This document shows positions 5,134-54,757 of a stretch of 55,474 nt of DNA, piece by piece (positions within the stretch are counted from its first letter, which is position 1; each line of letters starts with the position of its first letter). This DNA is from Burkholderiales bacterium (GTDB lineage: Bacteria; Pseudomonadota; Gammaproteobacteria; Burkholderiales; SG8-41). The stretch is taken from the NCBI GenBank assembly GCA_050741115.1, contig JBOIEM010000018.1, forward strand, positions 1-55,474, read 5' to 3'. The position numbers were made by a program, and so were the translations under genes. The notes below the pieces were generated by a model. It did not search any database, was not told the origin of the DNA, and worked only from the letters and a program-made list of their open reading frames with translations.

Positions 5134-5171
5134 ATAAAAAACCCCCGGTTAAAGGGGAGTAAAACCGGGGG
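5134..5171 (-). terminator. intrinsic-terminator-like hairpin (orphan, minus strand)
   Basis: 9-bp GC-rich stem CCCCCGGTT (5142-5150) / AACCGGGGG (5163-5171) with a 12-nt loop. On the minus strand it is followed by a T6 run (A-run 5136-5141 on the plus strand). No gene ends here. Confidence 0.65.
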
Positions 5172-6326
<1,155 letters not shown>

Positions 6327-25255: not shown

Positions 25256-27250
25256 ATGAACATTATTCGCGTCGCGCTCGACGTCCCGGTGCCCAGGCTG
25301 TTCGATTACCGCGCACCCGATGCCTCGGCCGCCGATGTGGGGCGGCGCGTGCTGGTCCCCTTCAAGCGGAAAAACGCGTTGGGCGTGATCGTCGAGCTCG
25401 GGCACTCCACGGCGGTTCCGGCGGAGCGGCTCAAGGAGGCCGTCCGCATTCTCCGCGACCTGCCGCCGCTCGCGGCGGAGGACCTGCGATTGCTGCGGTT
25501 TTCCGCTGATTACTACCACCACCCGTTGGGCGCGGTGATCATGGGCGCATTGCCGACGCGCCTGCGGCGCGTCGCCGCCCTGCCTCGGCAGCGCGTCATG
25601 CCCCACGAAACCGCCGCGGGCGTGCCCCCCGCGGCCGCAGCGGATCCGGCCCCGGAGCTGACTCCGGAACAGGCGCGGGCCGTGAACGAGATCTGTAGCC
25701 GTCTTGGGGCGTTCCGGCCGTTTCTTCTGCTCGGGGTCACCGGCAGCGGCAAGACCGAGGTCTACCTGCACGCCATCGCCGCAACGCTCGCCGCCGGCCG
25801 GCAGGCGCTGGTGGTGGTGCCCGAGATCGCGCTCACGCCTCAACTGGAAGCCTTGATAAGAGGCCGCTTTCCGGGCACGCCGGCCGTGAGCCTGCACAGC
25901 GGGCTCGCCGAAGCCGAGCGGCTGGAGCATTGGCGGTCGGCTTCCTCCGGGCGGGCCCGCATCGTCCTCGGCACCCGGCTTGCAGTGTTCGCACCGCTGC
26001 CGGATCTCGGCCTCATCATTGTGGACGAGGAACAGGACAGCTCATTCAAGCAGGGGGAGGGTTTCCGCTATTCGGCGCGGGACCTCGCCGTGGTGCGGTC
26101 CCGGCAGCGTGGCGTGCCCGTCGTGCTCGGCTCGGCTACGCCCGCACTCGAAACCTATCACAACGCCGTCAGCGGCCGCTACGCGCTGCTCACGCTCACG
26201 CGGCGCATTGGCGCCCCGCCCCCGCGCATCGCCTGCATCGACACGCGAGGCGACCGATTGAGCGACGGACTTTCGGAGCGCCTCGTCACCGCGCTGCGCG
26301 AGTGCGTCGCGCGCGGCGAGCAGGCGCTCGTGTTCATCAACCGGCGCGGCTACGCCCCGGTGCTGATGTGCCGGTCCTGCGGCTGGATATCCGGCTGCCG
26401 GCGCTGCTCCGCGCGGCTCGTGCTGCACCTGCCGGAACGCCGACTGTGCTGCCACCATTGCGGTCACGTCTCGGCGCCTCCGGCGGCGTGCCCGGGCTGC
26501 GGCAACCCGGATCTCGCGCTGATCGGGCAGGGCACCCAGCGAGTGGAAGAGACGCTGGCGCGCCTCATCCCGCAGGCGCGCATCCTGCGCATCGACCGCG
26601 ACACGACCCGCCGGCGCCGCGCCTGGCACGCGATGCGACTGCGCATACAGGAACGCGATGTCGACGTCCTGGTCGGAACCCAGATCCTAGCCAAGGGCCA
26701 CGATTTTCCCCACCTCAATCTGGTGGGCGTACTCAATGCCGACGGCCAGCTTTACAGCAGCGACTTCCGGGCCGCCGAGCGGCTTTTCGCGCAGCTCACG
26801 CAGGTCGCCGGGCGCGCCGGACGCGGCGGCATCCAGGGGGAGGTGCTGATCCAGACCGAATTCCCGCACCATCCCCTCTACGCCGCATTGCGCAACCAGG
26901 ATTACCGCGCTTTCGCGGATGCCGCGCTCGCCGAGCGCCGGCAGGCCGGCTTCCCTCCGTTCGTCCACCAGGCGCTGCTGCGCGCCGAAGCGCCGAGACT
27001 TGCGACTGCGCTCCAGTTCCTCGGCGAGGCCGCGCGCCGCGCCCAGGCACTCGATGAACAGATCATCGCGTATGAACCCGTGCCGGCCACCCTGCCGCGG
27101 CGGGCCGGCCGCGAGCGCGCGCAATTGCTGGTCCAGTCCGCGTCACGGAGCCGCCTGCGCGGGTTTCTGGAAGCGTGGCATGACGCTTTGGCGAGCTCGG
27201 TTTCCACGCGGGCGCGCTGGTCGATCGACGTCGACCCGCTGGAGTTCTGA
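25256..27250 (+). CDS. priA: primosomal replication-restart helicase PriA
   Basis: VALDVPVPRLFDY N-terminus, GVTGSGKTEVY Walker A, DEEQD, and the Cys-rich zinc region CRSCGW..CRRC..CHHCG..CPGCG. Confidence 0.94.
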   Translation: MNIIRVALDVPVPRLFDYRAPDASAADVGRRVLVPFKRKNALGVIVELGHSTAVPAERLKEAVRILRDLPPLAAEDLRLLRFSADYYHHPLGAVIMGALPTRLRRVAALPRQRVMPHETAAGVPPAAAADPAPELTPEQARAVNEICSRLGAFRPFLLLGVTGSGKTEVYLHAIAATLAAGRQALVVVPEIALTPQLEALIRGRFPGTPAVSLHSGLAEAERLEHWRSASSGRARIVLGTRLAVFAPLPDLGLIIVDEEQDSSFKQGEGFRYSARDLAVVRSRQRGVPVVLGSATPALETYHNAVSGRYALLTLTRRIGAPPPRIACIDTRGDRLSDGLSERLVTALRECVARGEQALVFINRRGYAPVLMCRSCGWISGCRRCSARLVLHLPERRLCCHHCGHVSAPPAACPGCGNPDLALIGQGTQRVEETLARLIPQARILRIDRDTTRRRRAWHAMRLRIQERDVDVLVGTQILAKGHDFPHLNLVGVLNADGQLYSSDFRAAERLFAQLTQVAGRAGRGGIQGEVLIQTEFPHHPLYAALRNQDYRAFADAALAERRQAGFPPFVHQALLRAEAPRLATALQFLGEAARRAQALDEQIIAYEPVPATLPRRAGRERAQLLVQSASRSRLRGFLEAWHDALASSVSTRARWSIDVDPLEF

Positions 27251-27254
27251 CGTC

Positions 27255-27802
27255 AGAGCCTATCTCAATAATAGGCACGTGTGCGACGGAGGCGATGTGG
27301 GATGCAGTCTTAGGAGGATAGCCCGCAGCAATATGTCGATATTGCAAGGGTTCCCGACGACAAGATGCGCCCAGATCGCCCCGTCCCTGCGGGTTGTGGC
27401 CAGGGGCACGCGGAGGGCGGAGCAGTGCCTGCGCCGGTGGCGTAGGTGCGACCCCGGAGCGGGCCGAGCGCGCCGGATTCAATCCGCGTGCCGGTGCACG
27501 CCTTTGCGGTCGCATCCCCGCAAGCGGGCGCGTCGAGGGGCAGAAGAGGGACCCTTCTGGGATCTGACCCCCGGTGACGCGCATGGATCGGCATTCGAAG
27601 CGACGCGCCTCAATCGGCTTAACGGTCGCATCCCCCCAGGGGGCCCCTGCTCCACGTTGCGCCGATCCCTGCTCAACGCTCCGGCGCGCCGTCTGCTTTG
27701 TTGCCCGGCTTGACCCTATCGACATAGGGCCTGCGCCGTGCGCCTCGCATCCATCCCGTCCTGGCCACAACGCATCACGCGCCTATTATTGAGATAGGCT
27801 CT
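27255..27802 (+). repeat. uncharacterised 548-bp inverted-terminal-repeat element, copy A (MITE-like or structured RNA candidate)
   Basis: The termini AGAGCCTATCTCAATAATAGGC (27255-27276) and GCCTATTATTGAGATAGGCTCT (27781-27802) are perfect reverse complements. About 95% identical by hand alignment to the reverse complement of 43112..43522, plus 116-bp and 22-bp extra blocks. It fills the priA-argS spacer. Confidence 0.85.
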
Positions 27803-27832
27803 TATAATCCGCCTTTTTTCTCAGAGTCCCAG

Positions 27833-29572
27833 ATGCCGGCTTCCGTCGTCCCCGACCTGCGCTCACACCTTTCCGCGCTGTTCGAGAAAGCGATTCGGGA
27901 AGTCGCGCCCGTGCCCGTCGCGCCCAGCATCGTGCTGGAGAAGCCGCGGCAGGCCGAACACGGCGACTACGCCTGCAACGTCGCGCTGCAGCTCGCCAAG
28001 TCGCTCAAGCGCGCGCCGCGCGAGATCGCGGACCGGCTGGTGGCGGCGCTGCCGGCTTCGCCTTACCTCGAACGGGCCGAGGTGGCCGGGGCGGGCTTCA
28101 TCAATCTATTCCTCAAGCGCTCGTTCCGGCAGCAGGTCGTCAATCGCATCCTGGAAGCCGGGGCGGGCTACGGAACCTGGCAGCTGGGCGAGCACAAAAA
28201 GGTCCAGGTGGAATTCGTGTCGGCCAATCCCACCGGTCCGCTGCACGTCGGCCACGGGCGCGGCGCCGCCTACGGCGCAAGCCTCGCCAACGTTCTCGCG
28301 GCCGCCGGCTTCGACGTCAGCCGCGAGTTCTACGTCAACGACTTCGGACGGCAGATGGACATCCTGACGCTGTCGACATGGCTGCGGTATCTGGAGTTCG
28401 CCGGCGAGGCCGTATCCTTTCCGGCGAACGCCTACCAGGGGGAGTACGTGCGCTCCATGGCGCGCGCCCTCCACTCCGGGCACGGAGGGCGCTTCGGCCG
28501 CAGCGCCGGCGTCTTCAGCGCGGCGCTCGCCGAGCCCGACGAAGAGCTGCGCGTCGACGCCATGATCGAGGCCGCCAAGCGCGCGCTCGGCGCGGACTAC
28601 GACACCATTCACCGCTTCGCTCTCGAGGTGCAGCTCGCGGACTGCCGCAGCGATCTCGCCGAATTCGGGGTCACGTTCGATAAGTGGTACTCGGAGCGCT
28701 CGCTCTACGATACCGGCCGTGTCGAGCGCGCCCTGAAGCGGCTCGAGGAGCGCGGGCACCTCTACGAGCAGGACGGGGCGAAGTGGTTCCGCTCGAGCCG
28801 CTACGGCGACGAGAAGGACCGCGTGGTGCGGCGCGAGAACGGCCAGTACACCTATTTCGCTTCCGACATTGCCTACCATCTCGACAAGTTCGAGCGCGGC
28901 TTCGACATCGCGATCGACATCTGGGGCGCCGACCATCACGGCTACATGGCGCGCGTGAGGGGCGCGCTCGCGGCGCTCGGGCTCGACCCGCAGCGGCTCA
29001 CCATCGCGCTCGTCCAGTTCGCGGTGCTCTACCGCGGCGGGCAGCGGGTTCCGATGTCAACGCGCTCCGGGGAATTCGTCACGTTGCGGGAGCTGCGAAA
29101 CGAGGTCGGCAACGACGCCGCCCGCTTCTTCTACGTGCTGCGGAAGAGCGATCAGCACCTCGATTTCGATCTCGATCTCGCGAAATCGCAGAGCACCGAC
29201 AACCCGGTCTACTACGTGCAGTACGCACATGCGCGGGTGTGCAGCGTGCTCGAGCAGTGGGGAGGGCGCCCCGCGGAACTCTCCGGAGCCGACGTGTCCG
29301 CGCTCGTCTCGGAGCACGAGACCGCGTTGCTCGCCCGCCTGCTCGAATATCCGGACGCGGTGGAGAACGCGGCGCGCGATCTTGCGCCGCACCTGATCGC
29401 GTTCTACCTGCGGGAGCTCGCCGCGGCGTTCCACAGCTATTACAACGCGACGCGCCTGCTGGTGGAAGACGAGAGCGTGAAACGCGCGCGCCTCGCACTG
29501 GCCGCCGCGGTGCGGCAGGTCCTGCGCAACGGGCTCGCGCTGCTGGGTGTGTCGGCCCCCGATAGAATGTAA
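27833..29572 (+). CDS. argS: arginine--tRNA ligase
   Basis: 579 aa. FVSANPTGPLHVGHGR (HIGH), the MSTRSG (KMSKS-like) region, and a DALR anticodon-binding C-terminus. Confidence 0.95.
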   Translation: MPASVVPDLRSHLSALFEKAIREVAPVPVAPSIVLEKPRQAEHGDYACNVALQLAKSLKRAPREIADRLVAALPASPYLERAEVAGAGFINLFLKRSFRQQVVNRILEAGAGYGTWQLGEHKKVQVEFVSANPTGPLHVGHGRGAAYGASLANVLAAAGFDVSREFYVNDFGRQMDILTLSTWLRYLEFAGEAVSFPANAYQGEYVRSMARALHSGHGGRFGRSAGVFSAALAEPDEELRVDAMIEAAKRALGADYDTIHRFALEVQLADCRSDLAEFGVTFDKWYSERSLYDTGRVERALKRLEERGHLYEQDGAKWFRSSRYGDEKDRVVRRENGQYTYFASDIAYHLDKFERGFDIAIDIWGADHHGYMARVRGALAALGLDPQRLTIALVQFAVLYRGGQRVPMSTRSGEFVTLRELRNEVGNDAARFFYVLRKSDQHLDFDLDLAKSQSTDNPVYYVQYAHARVCSVLEQWGGRPAELSGADVSALVSEHETALLARLLEYPDAVENAARDLAPHLIAFYLRELAAAFHSYYNATRLLVEDESVKRARLALAAAVRQVLRNGLALLGVSAPDRM

Positions 29573-43092: not shown

Positions 43093-43111
43093 TTCCGGAT
43101 TCTTGCGACTG

Positions 43112-43522
43112 GAGCCTATCTCAGCAATAGGCGCGTGATGCGTTGTGGCCGGGACGGGACGGATGCGAGGCGCACGGCGCAGACCCTATGTCGATAGGGT
43201 CAAGCCGGGCAACAAAGCAGACGGCGCGCCGGAGCGTTGAGCAGGGGCCCCGCTTGCGGGGATGCGACCGCAAAGGCGTGCACCGGCACGCGGATTGAAT
43301 CCGGCGCGCTTGGCCCGCTCCAGGGTCGCACCTACGCCACCGGCGCAGGCACTGCTCCGCCCTCCGCGTGCCCCTGGCTGCAACCCGCAGGGACGGGGCG
43401 ATCTGGGCGCATTTTGTCGTCGGTAGCCCTTGCAATATCGACATATTGCTGCGTGTTCTCCTCCTAAAACTGCATCCCACATCGCCTCCGTCGCACACGT
43501 GCCTATTGCTGAGATAGGCTCT
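43112..43522 (-). repeat. uncharacterised 411-bp inverted-terminal-repeat element, copy B (same family as 27255..27802)
   Basis: The termini GAGCCTATCTCAGCAATAGGC (43112-43132) and GCCTATTGCTGAGATAGGCTCT (43501-43522) are reverse complements. Its reverse complement aligns to copy A with 19 mismatches that I counted by hand. It occupies the whole atpI-atpB spacer and touches the atpI stop codon. Confidence 0.85.
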
Positions 43523-49729: not shown

Positions 49730-51385
49730 TCAACTCTTGCGCGGCGCTGCCTCGTGCTCGAGCACCCGCGTGATTTGCCACTGCTGCGCGATCGAGAGCA
49801 CGTTATTGATCAGCCAGTACAGCACCAGGCCCGCGGGGAAGAAGAAAAAGAAGACGCTGAACACGATCGGCATGATCTTCATGACCCGTGCCTGCACCGG
49901 ATCGGGCGGCTCTGGATTGAGCAGAGTCTGCACCCACATCGTCACCGCCATGAGGACCGGCAGGATGAACCATGGATCGGGCGCCGCCAGATCATCGATC
50001 CACAGCATGAAGGGGGCGTGCCGGAGCTCTACGCTCGCCAGAAGAACCCAATAAAGTGCAATAAAAACAGGTATTTGAACAACTATCGGCATGCACCCGC
50101 CGAGCGGATTGATCTTTTCCGTCTTGTAGAGCTCCATCATGGCCTGCTGCAGGCGCTGGCGGTCCTGACCATATTGATCCTTGAGCTTCTGCAGTTTCGG
50201 AGCCAGCACGCGCATCTTGGCCATCGAGCGGTAGCTCGCGGCCGACAACGGGTAGAACAGCACCTTGATGATCACCGTCATGAGGATGATGGCGACTCCC
50301 CAGTTGCCCACCCATTGATTGAGCCAGGCGAGCACCCAGAACAGCGGAACCGCGATCACCGTGAGCCAGCCGTAATCGATTGTGAGATCGAGACCGGGCG
50401 CGATTCTCGCGAGCTTCTCCTGTTCCTCCGGCCCGGCGTACAGCGGCACCGTGATGGTGGCGCTCGCGCCCGGTGCGATCGCGCCGACGGGGACGATCAC
50501 GCCCGCCGCGTAGAGCCCCTCTTCCAGGCGCCGCGCATAAAACTCCCGCGAAATGCCGTTGCGCGGAAGCCAGGCGCTGAAAAAATAGTGCTGCAGCATC
50601 GCGATCCAGCCATCCTCGCTGTTCTTCGGGTACTGCGCCTTGCCTTTCTCGATGTCGGCAAACGCGAGCTTCAGGAATTTGTCCTTGTCCGTGTAGAGCG
50701 CGACTCCCGTAAACGTCGGCAGCATCGCGGAGTCGCCGGCCGGCGCCTTGTCGTCGCGCACTAGCTGGAAATACGCGTACGGCTGTAGGGCCGCGGCACC
50801 CGCGTTGACGATCTCGAAGCTGACATCGATCAGGTAGCTTCCCTGCCGGAAGCGATAGACCTTGCTCACCTGCGCTCCCGCCGCCGCCGGGGCGGTGAGC
50901 CGCACTTCGAGCTCCCCCCGGCCATCGCCGAGCTGGAAGCTGTCGCCCTGCGCGGTGTAGAGCGTGCGATGATTGGGCAAGCCGCTGCCGATCAGCCCGG
51001 CCTGGGCGATGTAGGTGCGCTCCGCGCCGGCCTCGAACAACACGAAGTTCTTGCTGCGATCGAGCGTGTCGCGGTGTTTCTTGAATTGCAGCCGCCGCAG
51101 GTCTCCTCCATGGCTGCTCAACTCCGCAGCGAGCACGTCGGTCTCGACCCGTATCGTCACACCGGTCTCGGGAACGCCCTGCTCCTGCTTCGGGACAGCG
51201 CCCTGGCTTGCCGTAAGCTTCTCGCCCGGCACCGGGGTCTGCGCCGAAGGGGGCAGCGCTTTCTCGTCCTTGCCGGCCACTGCCGCTGGCGGACGCGGCG
51301 GCGGCTGATCACGCTGCCACGCGTCGAGCAGCATGAACACCGAGAAGGAGAAGACGAAGAAGAGAATCAGGCGTTGCGAATCCAT
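49730..51385 (-). CDS. yidC: membrane protein insertase YidC
   Basis: 551 aa. N-terminal TM segment, a large periplasmic domain, and a conserved C-terminal core (NWGVAIILMTVIIK, GCMPIVVQIPVFIALY). Confidence 0.95.
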   Translation of the reverse strand: MDSQRLILFFVFSFSVFMLLDAWQRDQPPPRPPAAVAGKDEKALPPSAQTPVPGEKLTASQGAVPKQEQGVPETGVTIRVETDVLAAELSSHGGDLRRLQFKKHRDTLDRSKNFVLFEAGAERTYIAQAGLIGSGLPNHRTLYTAQGDSFQLGDGRGELEVRLTAPAAAGAQVSKVYRFRQGSYLIDVSFEIVNAGAAALQPYAYFQLVRDDKAPAGDSAMLPTFTGVALYTDKDKFLKLAFADIEKGKAQYPKNSEDGWIAMLQHYFFSAWLPRNGISREFYARRLEEGLYAAGVIVPVGAIAPGASATITVPLYAGPEEQEKLARIAPGLDLTIDYGWLTVIAVPLFWVLAWLNQWVGNWGVAIILMTVIIKVLFYPLSAASYRSMAKMRVLAPKLQKLKDQYGQDRQRLQQAMMELYKTEKINPLGGCMPIVVQIPVFIALYWVLLASVELRHAPFMLWIDDLAAPDPWFILPVLMAVTMWVQTLLNPEPPDPVQARVMKIMPIVFSVFFFFFPAGLVLYWLINNVLSIAQQWQITRVLEHEAAPRKS

Positions 51386-51415
51386 GACCGTGCTTCCGCC
51401 GTGACGACCACGAGC

Positions 51416-51781
51416 TTATTGGCCGCGCGGCGCCGCGGCAAGCTCCAGCAGCATCCGAGTGAGCTCCGCGCGCACCGCCGCGCTGGAACCCCGCGGTGCG
51501 CGGCGCCGCAGCTCGACCACGATATCAACGCCGGCCGGCCGCTCGACCAGGGTGCGAAACACCTCTCTCACCAGGCGCTTCATCCGATTGCGATCGACCG
51601 CGCGCGGCATCACTCGCCGGCTGGCAATGATGCCGATGCGCGCCCGGGAGAGGCCGTTCGGTCTGACGTACAACCTGAAATTGCGCCGCGCCCTTGCCGC
51701 GCCGGCCGCCAGCGTTGCGGCGAACTCCTCGCGGCGATGCAGCCGTGCGCCGGACGGCAGCGCGTGGCTCGTCTCGCTCAG
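51416..51781 (-). CDS. rnpA: ribonuclease P protein component
   Basis: [13 protein letters not shown]...[26 protein letters not shown] (RNR motif). There is no ATG, GTG or TTG upstream of the conserved N-terminus in this frame. The tentative start is a CTG at 51781 overlapping the rpmH stop, with an ATT at 51790 as the alternative. The stop is secure. Confidence 0.8.
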
Positions 51782-51912
51782 GGGCTCAATCGCACCCGCC
51801 CCTTGGCGCGGCGCGCCCGCAGCACACTGCGCCCGCCTCGGGTGCGCATGCGAGCGCGGAATCCGTGCGTGCGCTTGCGGCGCTTCACCGATGGCTGATA
51901 GGTCCGTTTCAT
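51778..51912 (-). CDS. rpmH: 50S ribosomal protein L34
   Basis: Not in the ORF track (under 60 aa). My translation of the minus strand gives [44 protein letters not shown], a textbook L34. Confidence 0.95.
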
Positions 51913-52018
51913 GGGGGTCCGGCCGGCCGCTGAAAAGCGCGCTATTACAACCTCTAACTCTCCGCCGTGTCAACCGCCCCGCTGGCGCCCGCAAATCGCT
52001 GCGCGGGCGCACTCGCGC

Positions 52019-52027
52019 TGTGGATAA
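52019..52027 (-). promoter_or_regulatory. consensus DnaA box upstream of dnaA
   Basis: TGTGGATAA on the plus strand is the reverse complement of TTATCCACA. It lies 80 nt upstream of the dnaA ATG. Confidence 0.7.
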
Positions 52028-52106
52028 CGCTGCGTAAACAGGATAAAATCGAGCGCTGAAAAGCTTCTCCCCAGCGCGCCCGGTTTCGAACAATAACGCC
52101 ATCCCG

Positions 52107-53438
52107 ATGAACAGTTTCTGGCGCTTCTGCCTGGGCCGTTTCGAGAAAGAACTGCCGCCCCAGCAGTACCGCACCTGGATCAAGCCGCTGCGTCCTCAGA
52201 CCGACGCCGACCGGCTGACGCTCGTCGCGCCGAACCGTTTCGTCCTGCAGTGGATACGCGACAAGTTCCTCGCGCGGATCGAGCAGCTGGCGCGGGAGCA
52301 CTTCAAGCGCGACATCGAAGTGCAGGTCGTCCTCGCCGAGAAGGAGCCGCCGGCTCCCCATCCGGCGCCGGTCGCCCCACGCGCTCCGGAGCGCGAGGCC
52401 AAGCCAAGCAGCCGCGAGATCTCCCGGTTGAATCCCGCCTTCACCTTCGAGACCTTCGTCACCGGCAAGGCGAACGAGCTCGCGCGGGCAGCGGCCACGC
52501 AGGTCGCCGAGCGGCCGGGCTCCGCCTACAATCCGCTCTTTATTTATGGCGGCGTGGGCCTCGGCAAGACCCACCTCATACAGGCGATCGGCAACCGCCT
52601 GCGCGAGCAGGCCCCCGAATCCAAGATCCGCTACATCCACGCCGAGCAGTACGTTTCCGACGTCGTGCGTGCCTACCAGCACAAGGCGTTCGACGACTTC
52701 AAGCGCTACTACCACTCCCTCGATCTGCTACTGGTCGACGACATCCAGTTCTTCAGCGGCAAGAGCCGCACCCAGGAGGAATTCTTCTACGCGTTCAACG
52801 CGCTGATCGAGGCGCACAAGCAGGTCGTCATCACCTGCGACACCTATCCGAAGGAGATCGCCGGAATCGAGAACCGCCTGATCTCGCGCTTCGGCTGGGG
52901 CCTCACGGTGGCGGTCGAGCCGCCGGAGCTTGAGATGCGCGTGGCCATTCTCCTCAAGAAAGCGGAAGCCGAAGGCATCAAGCTCGACGAGGCGGTTGCG
53001 TTTTTCCTGGCCAAGCACATCCAGTCGAACGTGCGCGAGCTCGAGGGAGGCTTGAAGCGCGTGATTGCCTACGCGCGGTTCTCGGGGCGGGATTTCTCGG
53101 TCGAGCTTTGCCGCGAGGCTCTGCGCGACCTGCTGGCGATACAGCACCGGCAGGTTTCCATCGAGAACATCCAGAAGACCGTCGCCGACTACTACAAGAT
53201 CAAGGTCTCGGAGATGTACTCGAAGAAGCGCAGCCGGAACATCGCCCGCCCGCGGCAGGTCGCGATGGCGCTCGCCAAGGAGCTGACGCAGTTGAGCCTG
53301 CCGGACATCGGCGACGCGTTCGGCGGTCGCGATCACACCACGGTGCTGCACGCCTGCCGCAAGATTGCGCTGCTCAAGTCCACGAGCAGCGACCTGACCC
53401 GTGACTTCAATTCGCTGCTCAACGTCCTGAGGAGTTGA
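52107..53438 (+). CDS. dnaA: chromosomal replication initiator DnaA
   Basis: [16 protein letters not shown] Walker A, LLVDDIQF, and the domain IV DNA-binding helix ([15 protein letters not shown]). Confidence 0.97.
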
Positions 53439-53602
53439 CTACCGCCGTGTGGTTTGTGGATATCCAGATGCGCTGCCGTGCGATGCGTCGGCTGTTCACA
53501 ATCCTTCCCGGTTCGCTACCAGCTTACGCACAGGGTTATTCCATCCGCCCGATCCAGGTCGCGCGGGTCATTTGCGACTTTTGCACAGCAACCACCGAGC
53601 CC

Positions 53603-53629
53603 TACTAATCTTACTATACCTACTATAGA
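53603..53629. repeat. three in-phase AT-rich 9-mers (TACTAATCT / TACTATACC / TACTATAGA)
   Basis: Read directly. This is the most AT-rich patch of the dnaA-dnaN spacer and ends 18 nt before the dnaN ATG. Confidence 0.8.
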
Positions 53630-53647
53630 TAATTTAGAGCAAAGCCT

Positions 53648-54757
53648 ATGAAGCTCGTTCAACTCGAACGCGATGCATTGCTCAAGCCATTGCAGGCGGT
53701 AACCGGCATCGTCGAAAAGCGTCATACGCTCCCGATCCTCTCGAACGTCCTCGTCGAGCGCAAGTCGGGCACCCTGCTGATGATGGCGACTGACCTCGAG
53801 ATCCAGGTGGCGGCGCGTACTGAACTCGGGAAGGGCCAGGGTGAGGACGCGGGCCTCACGGTATCGGCACGCAAGCTCCAGGAAATCCTGCGGGCCCTGC
53901 CGGAGGGGACCGAGGCCACGCTCGACGTGCAGAACAACCGGCTGCAGGTGCGTTCGGGCAAGAGCCGCTTCAACCTTCAGACGCTGCCGGTGGCGGATTT
54001 CCCGTCGATGGCCGATCCCGGGGCGGCGCAGGCGACGGTTACCATGCCGCAGAAGGCGCTGCGGGAGCTGCTGCTGCTGGTGCAGTACGCGATGGCGCAG
54101 CAGGACATACGCTATTACCTGAACGGGCTGCTGCTGGTGCTCGAGGGCGGACAGGTCAAGGTCATCGCCACCGACGGCCACCGGTTGAGCTACGCCGCGC
54201 GGCCGCTGGGGCAACAGCAGGAGAAGCGCGAAGTGATACTGCCGCGCAAGGCGGTGCTTGAGCTCGCGCGCCTGCTCGCCGACAGCGATGACGCGGTCAC
54301 GATCGAGATCTTCGCAAACATGGTGCGGTTCGGATTCGGCAGCACGGTGCTCACCACCAAGATCATCGACGGCAAGTTTCCGGACTACACGCGGGTCGTG
54401 CCCACGAACTACCAGAAGCGCTTCTCCGTCAAGCGGCAGGAGCTGCTGCAATCGCTGCAGCGGGCGGGAATCCTCTCCAACGAGAAATTCCGCGGCGTGC
54501 GCTGGACGGTATCGGCCGGGAGCCTGCGCATCTCCTGCACCAACAACGAGCAGGAGGAGGCGCAGGAGGAGCTGGAGATTTCGTACGCGGGCGAGGCGCT
54601 CGATATCGGGTTCAACATCACCTATGTCCTGGACGTGCTGAACAACGTCCACAGCGAGGCGGTCGAGTGCTCGTTCGGGGACGCCAACAGCAGCATGCTG
54701 GTCACGGTGCCGGACAACCGGGAGTTCCGCTACGTGGTCATGCCGATGCGCATCTAG
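53648..54757 (+). CDS. dnaN: DNA polymerase III beta sliding clamp
   Basis: 369 aa. LLKPLQAVTGIVEKRHTLPILSNVL N-terminus and the ...YVVMPMRI C-terminus. Confidence 0.96.
   Translation: MKLVQLERDALLKPLQAVTGIVEKRHTLPILSNVLVERKSGTLLMMATDLEIQVAARTELGKGQGEDAGLTVSARKLQEILRALPEGTEATLDVQNNRLQVRSGKSRFNLQTLPVADFPSMADPGAAQATVTMPQKALRELLLLVQYAMAQQDIRYYLNGLLLVLEGGQVKVIATDGHRLSYAARPLGQQQEKREVILPRKAVLELARLLADSDDAVTIEIFANMVRFGFGSTVLTTKIIDGKFPDYTRVVPTNYQKRFSVKRQELLQSLQRAGILSNEKFRGVRWTVSAGSLRISCTNNEQEEAQEELEISYAGEALDIGFNITYVLDVLNNVHSEAVECSFGDANSSMLVTVPDNREFRYVVMPMRI

Follow-up and report, generated by a model that had tools for sequence, protein, structure and literature searches.

A dispersed palindromic repeat of uncultured Burkholderiales that most resembles the REP/REPIN class

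Contig JBOIEM010000018.1 of a Burkholderiales bacterium, analysed here over its whole length of 55,474 nt (the window), carries two related repeat elements, copy A between the genes for PriA and ArgS and copy B between those for AtpI and the ATP synthase A chain (atpB). Comparison of the two elements with each other and with genome and metagenome sequences showed that they belong to a previously undescribed family of gene-less mobile DNA repeats, which is widespread within a group of uncultured Burkholderiales from soil and groundwater. The family most resembles repetitive extragenic palindromes (REPs) and their hairpin-forming doublets (REPINs), not a functional RNA. In the interpretation that we favour, with a probability of roughly 0.55, copies A and B are non-autonomous palindromic mobile elements, large, modular and similar to REPINs and to bacterial interspersed mosaic elements (BIMEs), and were moved via single-stranded DNA, probably by a trans-acting enzyme of the HUH/Y1 type. 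An earlier note on this DNA had described a two-copy element matching no known family. The count holds within the window, where a whole-window repeat scan detected no further copy or substantial repeat, but not overall, as the family is dispersed over many genomes; likewise, the lack of a known relative holds at the sequence level, whereas the architecture fits the REP/BIME/REPIN type.

Copy A (27255-27802, plus strand) measures 548 bp and copy B (43111-43522, minus strand) 412 bp. Global alignment of A with the reverse complement of B gave 393 identities and 19 substitutions (95.4%), with a 136-nt block present only in A (27529-27666) as the sole difference in length. The 22-mers that end copy A, AGAGCCTATCTCAATAATAGGC and GCCTATTATTGAGATAGGCTCT, are exact reverse complements, and in copy B both 22-nt ends carry GC in place of AT at the matching positions. 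At its atpB end the outermost base of B does not match (GGAGCC at 43111), for which reason the bounds of B are given as 43111/43112-43522. Each terminal hairpin, GCCTAT-CTCA[AT]A-ATAGGC, has a loop of 7 nt that holds the variable dinucleotide. The window contains the terminus motif four times, where shuffles give an expectation of 0.00. A 12-nt long-range complement, GTTGTGGCCAGG/CCTGGCCACAAC (27393-27404 and 27760-27771), is perfect in A and broken in B. The priA stop codon lies at 27248-27250 and the argS ATG at 27833; the atpI stop overlaps the first base of B, and the atpB ATG stands 19 nt past that copy. The earlier note had given the copy coordinates (43112-43522 for B), end sequences, codon distances and long-range pairing, and had counted the 19 mismatches by hand, all of which our analysis confirmed. 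The internal hairpins that it listed are also present, although CCCCGCAAGCGGGG is perfect in B only.

Orthologous spacers lacking the element, a comparison that the earlier note had recommended, defined the insertion boundaries. In five relatives (ArgS 78-89% identical) the priA-argS spacer is only 24-38 nt long and reads TGACG(TC)G|CTTATAAT, where the window has TGACGTC[AGAGCC...GGCT]CTTATAAT. The atpI-atpB spacer is empty in five contigs (...GAGTA|CTAG... or ...GAGTACTAA....), whereas the window and metagenome contig L093 read ...GAGTA[AGAGCC...GGCT]C(T/C)AG...; because neither boundary can be slid, the parse at atpI is unique. Read on the opposite strand, both sites have the form tetranucleotide|5'-AGCC...GGCTCT-3'|flank, the tetranucleotides being CTAG and TAAG. 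The unit 5'-AGCC...GGCTCT-3' inserts exactly 3' of CTAG or TAAG on one strand, with nothing duplicated and nothing lost at the two sites with empty orthologues and no duplication at about 32 independent sites across the family; the earlier failure to find a target-site duplication is in line with this. The flanks and empty sites rule out a TA or YTAR duplication, and an IS110-type insertion with a CT core at both junctions is ruled out by the absence of CT from the left junction. At atpI the insertion takes away the last codon and provides the A of a new TAA stop.

The same preference was seen across the family. NTAG precedes AGCC on at least one side at 24 of the 32 independent sites and TAAG at three more, with flank conservation of 72-78% for Y, 55-58% for T, 86% for A and 100% for G. 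T at the second tetranucleotide position (58% against a background of ~17%) follows the pattern that a one-sided target would give, and a weaker two-sided preference may be compatible with the flanks as well. The first two bases of the tetranucleotide appear to derive from the target; GTAG itself was found at 5 of 64 ends. In many cases a stop codon or promoter box that contains TA, in a short spacer, serves as the target, and the interior may lie in either orientation. In most tandem-gene contexts an element end lies 0-6 nt from a stop codon, and divergent, promoter-bearing spacers outnumber convergent ones 10 to 1. Such places are where TA-containing words concentrate in a genome of 66% G+C, so that a YTAG-like preference leads to ends near stop codons and to an excess of divergent spacers.

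Loci of the family were collected by exact-pattern match to the terminus, with one genome per species in the genome scan. The terminus was found at 21 loci in GTDB genomes, nearly all in metagenome-assembled genomes (MAGs) of uncultured Burkholderiales/Betaproteobacteria and often as inverted pairs, and at no fewer than 120 metagenome loci from soil, sediment and groundwater samples. After removal of duplicate flanks these comprise at least 38 distinct two-ended insertion sites, about 32 of them independent. The 57 pairs of termini span total lengths of 41-616 bp with a modal form of 266-268 bp (265-266 bp at 19 sites); other lengths are 77, 85, 332-338, 410-413, 482, ~546-548 (copy A) and 614 bp, and back-to-back doublets of termini (41-50 bp) are among the loci listed. 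The modal form corresponds to positions 1-150 plus 436-548 of copy A. Longer forms have in addition a module of 72 nt within arm 1, a central module, or both. The 136 nt by which A exceeds B represent the long versus the short form of a second small repeat with GGTCGCATCCCC-hairpin units at its bounds, which stands alone at L016:3875-4010 and L040:10982-11117. Termini also occur without the usual interior, as solo hairpins of 22-25 bp beside ordinary genes; the solo palindromic unit, AGAGCCTAT-CTCAAYA-ATAGGCTCT, is 25 nt long with a 9-bp stem (6-7 bp in full elements). Contigs often end at the element. Among ~5.8 billion proteins, the ArgS closest to that of the window is 89% identical. The terminal 19-mers were not found in the papers searched, no plasmid, phage or viral contig matched the element, and an Rfam search, also recommended in the earlier note, gave no match over it at the gathering threshold or at E<=1.

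Several sites record repeated occupation or shrinkage in place. In contigs L060 and L079 an element occupies the same priA-argS junction (...GGCTCN|TATAAT) in the flipped orientation, with arm 1 toward argS. By argS DNA these two contigs and L140 form one clade (92-97% identical mutually, 84% to the window), and the window argS is closer (86-88%) to genomes with the empty site. Hence either two separate insertions, one in each orientation, struck the same nucleotide, or an ancient copy was inverted and precisely lost several times, and both alternatives imply high target specificity or precise excision. At the same junction L140, whose argS is 97% identical to that of L079, carries a 49-bp doublet of two termini. 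Copy B (GC/GC end loops, ~410-412 bp) shares its site with the element of L093 (AT/AT, 482 bp). Elsewhere, one orthologous site has forms of 338, 265 and 85 bp, another has 266 versus 482 bp, and a 46-bp doublet (L063) and a 25-bp solo palindrome (L004) stand at the same site. Thus one nucleotide position was occupied in two separate clades, and elements shrink in situ to doublets and solos; the direction of change in the solo/doublet and full/doublet pairs we infer, and in-situ length comparisons were relied on only where several contigs agree. With respect to the genes, about 13 elements are co-oriented and about 5 anti-oriented, a split that is not significant and rules out a fixed orientation relative to transcription. 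The co-orientation reported in the earlier note is correct for both window copies but is not a rule of the family.

The 268-nt core folds into a Y shape with a closing stem of ~35 bp between the ends and two arms of ~95 nt, at -161 and -165 kcal/mol on the two strands (z ~ -12); arm 2 is weakly homologous to arm 1 in inverted orientation (z ~5). Over 36 aligned elements 96.1% of the cells are paired. Two-sided changes affect 10 pairs, compared with 5.9 ± 1.0 in shuffles and 0-4 with slid partners, and 51 cells, compared with 18 in shuffles; the structure was taken from one member, so the slid control favours it, and the shuffle control ignores relatedness. Covarying pairs include two terminal loop positions, the outermost pair, four arm-1 pairs (among the arm-1 stem positions 65/99, 67/97 and 69/95 covary) and the tip of arm 2, and the first hairpin of the 72-nt module exists in two compensated versions. 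Covariation, a further check that had been proposed, is thereby supported beyond the termini, in the internal arms. The end loops are AT/AT in 24 elements, AC/AC in 9, GC/GC in 1 and discordant in 4, and at one site several contigs show discordant states; 34 of 38 are therefore concordant, compared with about 20 expected under independent ends by our own arithmetic. The matched end change between A and B is thus an instance of family-wide, strand-symmetric covariation and not a unique event. Departures from pairing show no strand bias (sporadic A.C at ~24 pairs, G.T at ~16), and the attempt to choose an RNA strand by G.U versus A.C departures accordingly failed. Together with the occurrence of both orientations, the unbiased departures make the constraint look strand-symmetric, which fits DNA hairpins better than a specific transcript.

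These results bear on the three origins that the earlier note had offered for the matched ends. The first, transposase-recognised repeats of two subfamilies, was right in that the element is mobile, as seen from the empty sites, the at least 38 insertion sites, the deletion derivatives that keep their ends and the loop subfamilies AT, AC and GC. In the sense of an ordinary DDE-type MITE (miniature inverted-repeat transposable element) it fits poorly with the absence of target duplication. Such a MITE would be the deletion derivative of an insertion sequence (IS) whose DDE transposase binds terminal inverted repeats of 22-27 bp, the AT, AC and GC ends marking subfamilies of different masters. 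The perfect terminal inverted repeats, the retention of both ends in all derivatives from 41 to 616 bp, a TA-rich target preference recalling the targets of IS630 or IS5, the dispersal and the insertion polymorphism would all be expected of it. We nevertheless consider a MITE unlikely: neither the ~32 sites nor the two with empty orthologues show a duplication, no coding parent was found among at least 140 terminus-bearing loci or in plasmids, phages and viral contigs, and recognition of each end separately by a protein leaves the matched end changes and the compensation in the arms unexplained.

The second proposed origin, the closing helix of a structured RNA, was correct insofar as pairing of the ends, and of the arms, covaries. 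A functional RNA, either a cis element of mRNAs or a processed small RNA that was kept by selection on the transcript and spread secondarily, would account for the very stable fold with covariation in several helices, for the position of both window copies inside transcription units between co-oriented genes, for the mild excess of co-oriented elements (~13 to 5) and for modules that vary but keep their places, a trait of many large RNAs. Yet the fold is equally good on both strands with no preference for G.U over A.C, both orientations occur at one site and relative to genes, close relatives differ in whether they have the element, which shrinks quickly to a 49-bp doublet, and Rfam holds no match at E<=1. 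RNA function as the primary explanation is not supported for these reasons, and we regard it as improbable. Least probable of all appears a recombinase core site. Here the 25-bp palindrome, with arms of 9 bp and an asymmetric spacer of 7 nt between them, would bound a flippable segment whose inverted sites need identical spacers, a requirement that would hold the ends in step. The arm-spacer-arm layout of solo sites agrees with it, and so do the shared spacer variant of the two ends and the reversed interior found in related genomes at one junction. But integration by such enzymes leaves direct, not inverted, site repeats, none of the copies has a recombinase gene nearby, known invertible switches do not take the form of dozens of sites dispersed at gene ends, and the arm covariation would be left unexplained.

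In the REPIN-like interpretation, each end would be a REP-like unit made of a YTAG-like tetranucleotide and the perfect palindrome AGCCTAT-N7-ATAGGCT, and two such units, inverted around a long, modular and self-complementary linker, would form a very large doublet of the BIME/REPIN type, with optional modules nested in the core and one of these a separate small repeat. Movement would probably proceed through single-stranded DNA, with a trans-acting HUH/Y1 enzyme of the RAYT (REP-associated tyrosine transposase) or IS200/IS605 type recognising the terminal hairpins. The matched AT, AC and GC end changes and the compensatory arm changes would arise from the strand folding back on itself, with selection for the fold, or correction of mismatches or template switching across the stem, keeping the two sides complementary. 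Foldback conversion, the third origin proposed earlier, is in this respect a good explanation of the concerted end changes, arrived at by inference. Effects on read-through mRNAs are probably secondary. A more far-reaching version would see here a new class of 'mega-REPINs', 268-nt Y-shaped folds of single-stranded DNA with two REP-like hairpin caps, nested small repeats, precise insertion 3' of YTAG at gene ends, an HUH-type enzyme and re-targeting of the same nucleotide in different lineages; it seems to us possible, though doubtful. Should it be true, the concerted end changes would report a need for end-to-end pairing in the transposition intermediate.

Several observations weigh against the REPIN-like interpretation. 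The element is 3-6 times longer than described REPINs, its tetranucleotide is YTAG and not GTAG with first two bases that look target-derived, and 8 of 32 sites lack NTAG on either side. REP families number tens to hundreds of copies per genome; we saw two copies in the 55-kb window and 1-5 loci per fragmented MAG. Both empty-site parses use related genomes and not true ancestors. Some metagenome contigs may be chimeric across repeats, weakening the comparisons of length in situ and of end-loop discordance. Taking oriC to the right of dnaA, the unit strand of copy A is the lagging-strand template and that of copy B the leading-strand template, so that a preference for the lagging strand is not supported (n=2). 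Finally, rough homology and motif screens of 0.94 Mb of loci revealed no Y1 or RAYT gene flanked by hairpins of the family, and the one RAYT-like gene seen in the lineage carries a different, non-dispersed hairpin.

That gene, at L092:8712-9401, was the single Y1 gene in the motif screen; tblastn with transposase sequences had given one false match, inside a TRAP-type binding protein. It encodes a protein of 229 aa that matches Pfam Y1_Tnp and scores 65 bits against the NCBIfam model of REP-associated tyrosine transposases, under the cut-off of 80 bits. The gene lies directly downstream of a comM/Mg-chelatase-like gene, a place that is fixed in four genomes, with synteny in L147-L149; the locus (L092:8676-9427) was also seen in L096, L147, L148 and L149. 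Its flanks carry AAATTGTGTGCGTCCCAATTT hairpins in perfect 23-bp inverted repeats (AAATTG-TGTGCGTCC-CAATTT) and not the family terminus, and no dispersed copies of this hairpin were detected in the fetched DNA. With its own flanking hairpins and fixed position the comM-linked gene is not supported as the partner of the family and looks like a single-copy, vertically inherited, domesticated transposase. It proves only that Y1 enzymes with a hairpin-cargo-inverted-hairpin layout exist in the lineage.

Features of the two copies in the window (positions in window coordinates; L numbers denote contigs used for comparison)
Feature	Position	Strand	Basis or comparison
Copy A, long form, between the priA stop and the TATAAT box upstream of argS	27255..27802	+	Orthologous spacers L142-L146 empty
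Left REP-like terminal hairpin of A, AGAGCCTAT-CTCAATA-ATAGGC, loop AT	27255..27276	+	Same 21-mer ends elements in at least 140 loci
Arm 1 of the Y-shaped core, tip GCAATAT-GTCG-ATATTGC	27290..27384	+	Fold, pair counts
Arm 2, 5' basal strand GTTGTGGCCAGG, partner 27760-27771	27393..27404	+	Helix in family pair counts
Optional central module inserted in arm 2, absent from the modal 266-bp form	27405..27689	+	Alignments, module BLAST
Second repeat nested in A (module M3), with GGTCGCATCCCC-hairpin units at its bounds, missing from B	27529..27666	+	Stand-alone copies
Rest of arm 2, tip CCCTAT-CGAC-ATAGGG, weakly homologous to arm 1 in inverted orientation	27690..27771	+	Covarying pair 540/551
Right terminal hairpin of A, exact reverse complement of the left	27781..27802	-	Inverted-repeat scan
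Target tetranucleotide of A, TAAG on the bottom strand (CTTA on top)	27801..27804	-	Empty versus occupied comparison
Target tetranucleotide of B, CTGG; CTAG in occupied L093 and in empty sites	43109..43112	+	Empty versus occupied comparison
Copy B, loop GC at both ends, at the atpI stop codon	43111..43522	-	Empty spacers L151-L155; occupied L093 with AT ends
Right-type terminal hairpin of B, GGAGCCTATCTCAGCAATAGGC on the plus strand	43111..43132	+	Terminus scan
Left-type terminal hairpin of B, AGAGCCTATCTCAGCAATAGGC; its first A completes the atpI TAA stop	43501..43522	-	Junction comparison

Of the 36 aligned members, only the two window copies (27319-27353 in A, 43424-43458 in B) have an arm-1 stem with mismatches at 65/99 and 67/97, positions that covary in the family. 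Their stems are reciprocal hybrids, GATAGCCC...GGGTTCC in A and GAGAACAC...GGGCTAC in B, which suggests some exchange between the copies, though the termini of each stay concordant; inversion of the arm-1 hairpin is ruled out as the source, the loop not being flipped. Near its argS end copy A contains a promoter-like site, TGGCCA-16 nt-TATTAT (27762-27789), directed toward argS. Its -10 box coincides with the right terminal loop, and the GC variant of copy B abolishes the box (TATTGC). A perfect TATAAT directly outside copy A (27803-27808) is kept in the empty orthologous spacers. Small palindromic repeats that can be inserted one within another seem to be plentiful in the lineage.

Positions 49730-54757 of the window form the neighbourhood of the chromosomal origin: yidC, mnmE, gidA, parA and the atp operon lie on the minus strand, followed by dnaA (52107-53438) and dnaN (53648-54757) on the plus strand, and the GC skew is negative everywhere to the left of dnaA. 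Both copies lie within origin-proximal core operons. The only Rfam match in the window is the anti-hemB small RNA (RF02837, 79 bits, 5134-5223, minus strand), directly upstream of and antisense-oriented to hemB (ALAD, 5259-6326); this RNA family was described from Burkholderia and is thus present in this uncultured lineage too.

Among the matches to the terminus, AT-rich contigs of unrelated organisms (L001, L076, L107, L035, L098, L069, L110), one of them from a Candidatus Falkowbacteria MAG, contain the palindrome in its full 25 nt, with variant loops. In about 4 of 10 such AT-rich matches the stem continues past the searched pattern. By our own arithmetic a pattern of 19 specified bases should match the genome collection about four times by chance, and matches from unrelated phyla such as L001 were treated as chance hairpins. 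Contig L017 (CAZCGD010000070.1), from a MAG labelled 'uncultured Streptomycetaceae', carries a 338-bp copy at a site orthologous to that of the Burkholderiales metagenome contigs L027 and L054 and is probably mis-binned. Most of the closest AtpI homologues are on contigs of ~1-2 kb, as might be the case if many related populations carried an element between atpI and atpB and their short-read assemblies broke at it.

If the REPIN-like interpretation holds, the REP/REPIN type of repeat extends to several-fold larger and more elaborate elements in a lineage that is represented by metagenomes only. How repeats of the REP type spread is still poorly understood (PMC8266576), and the family offers pairs of sites before and after insertion at nucleotide resolution: adjacent to CTAG or TAAG, free of duplication, at a site shared by two clades and in both orientations. 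The element breaks short-read assemblies, with which the many atpI homologues on ~1-kb contigs would agree, and within essential operons (atpI-atpB, priA-argS) it alters a stop codon and displaces promoter-proximal sequence. By these positions and assembly breaks it could matter for binning, annotation and expression in abundant soil and groundwater bacteria.

Several known systems offer points of comparison. In quasipalindrome correction, known from mutagenesis in E. coli, template switching copies a change in one arm to the other without selection. This process yields strand-symmetric 'compensatory' changes like those of the family; it is a mutational process and not an element family, and its role here is our inference. 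The ERIC/IRU elements of enterobacteria and the Correia elements of Neisseria are imperfect palindromes of 100-170 bp in transcribed intergenic DNA, found in either orientation and with internal insertions at fixed positions; they duplicate a TA target and likely influence the mRNAs of which they are part. Our family is likewise intergenic and palindromic, lies in both orientations and varies in size through internal insertions, but it duplicates no target, does not resemble them in sequence and ends in REP-like hairpins.

Elements of the IS200/IS605 group always insert 3' of a tetra- or pentanucleotide that is specific to the element; their excision is precise, and they move as single strands (PMC5027513). 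As in these elements and their gene-less derivatives, the palindrome-associated transposable elements (PATEs; PMC5027513, PMC7290912), the unit of our family lies exactly 3' of a tetranucleotide without duplication and has hairpins at both ends, and intact empty sites in relatives would fit precise excision. In contrast, the hairpins of IS200/IS605 elements are different, imperfect and on the same strand, whereas our family ends in perfect inverted repeats of 22-27 bp, has no TnpA or TnpB parent that we could find and showed no lagging-strand bias in the two window copies.

REPs are palindromes of 20-50 nt following a conserved tetranucleotide, usually GTAG, whose bases 3-4 are the most important, and in BIMEs a REP is joined to an inverted one by a variable linker (PMC8266576). 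REPINs are hairpin-forming doublets with frequent compensatory changes, and singlets are their remnants (PMC3116915). The 25-nt unit of our family falls within the REP size range, and the loci examined contained no cognate RAYT flanked by the same REPs. As in REPs, BIMEs and REPINs (PMC8266576, PMC3116915, PMC3333891), a short perfect palindrome follows what may be an xTAG word, with the last two bases best conserved, two inverted units enclose a variable linker, the whole forms a hairpin with compensatory changes across it, solos may be remnants, and the elements are extragenic without target duplication. The linker, however, ranges from 6 to ~570 nt and is itself conserved, modular and Y-shaped, whereas described REPINs measure ~70-110 nt. 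The biology thus stays within known categories and is not of a new kind, with the junction data and the scale of the element as its informative parts: the family is new and represents, in size and architecture, a new form within the REP/BIME/REPIN kind, with insertion like that of IS200/IS605.

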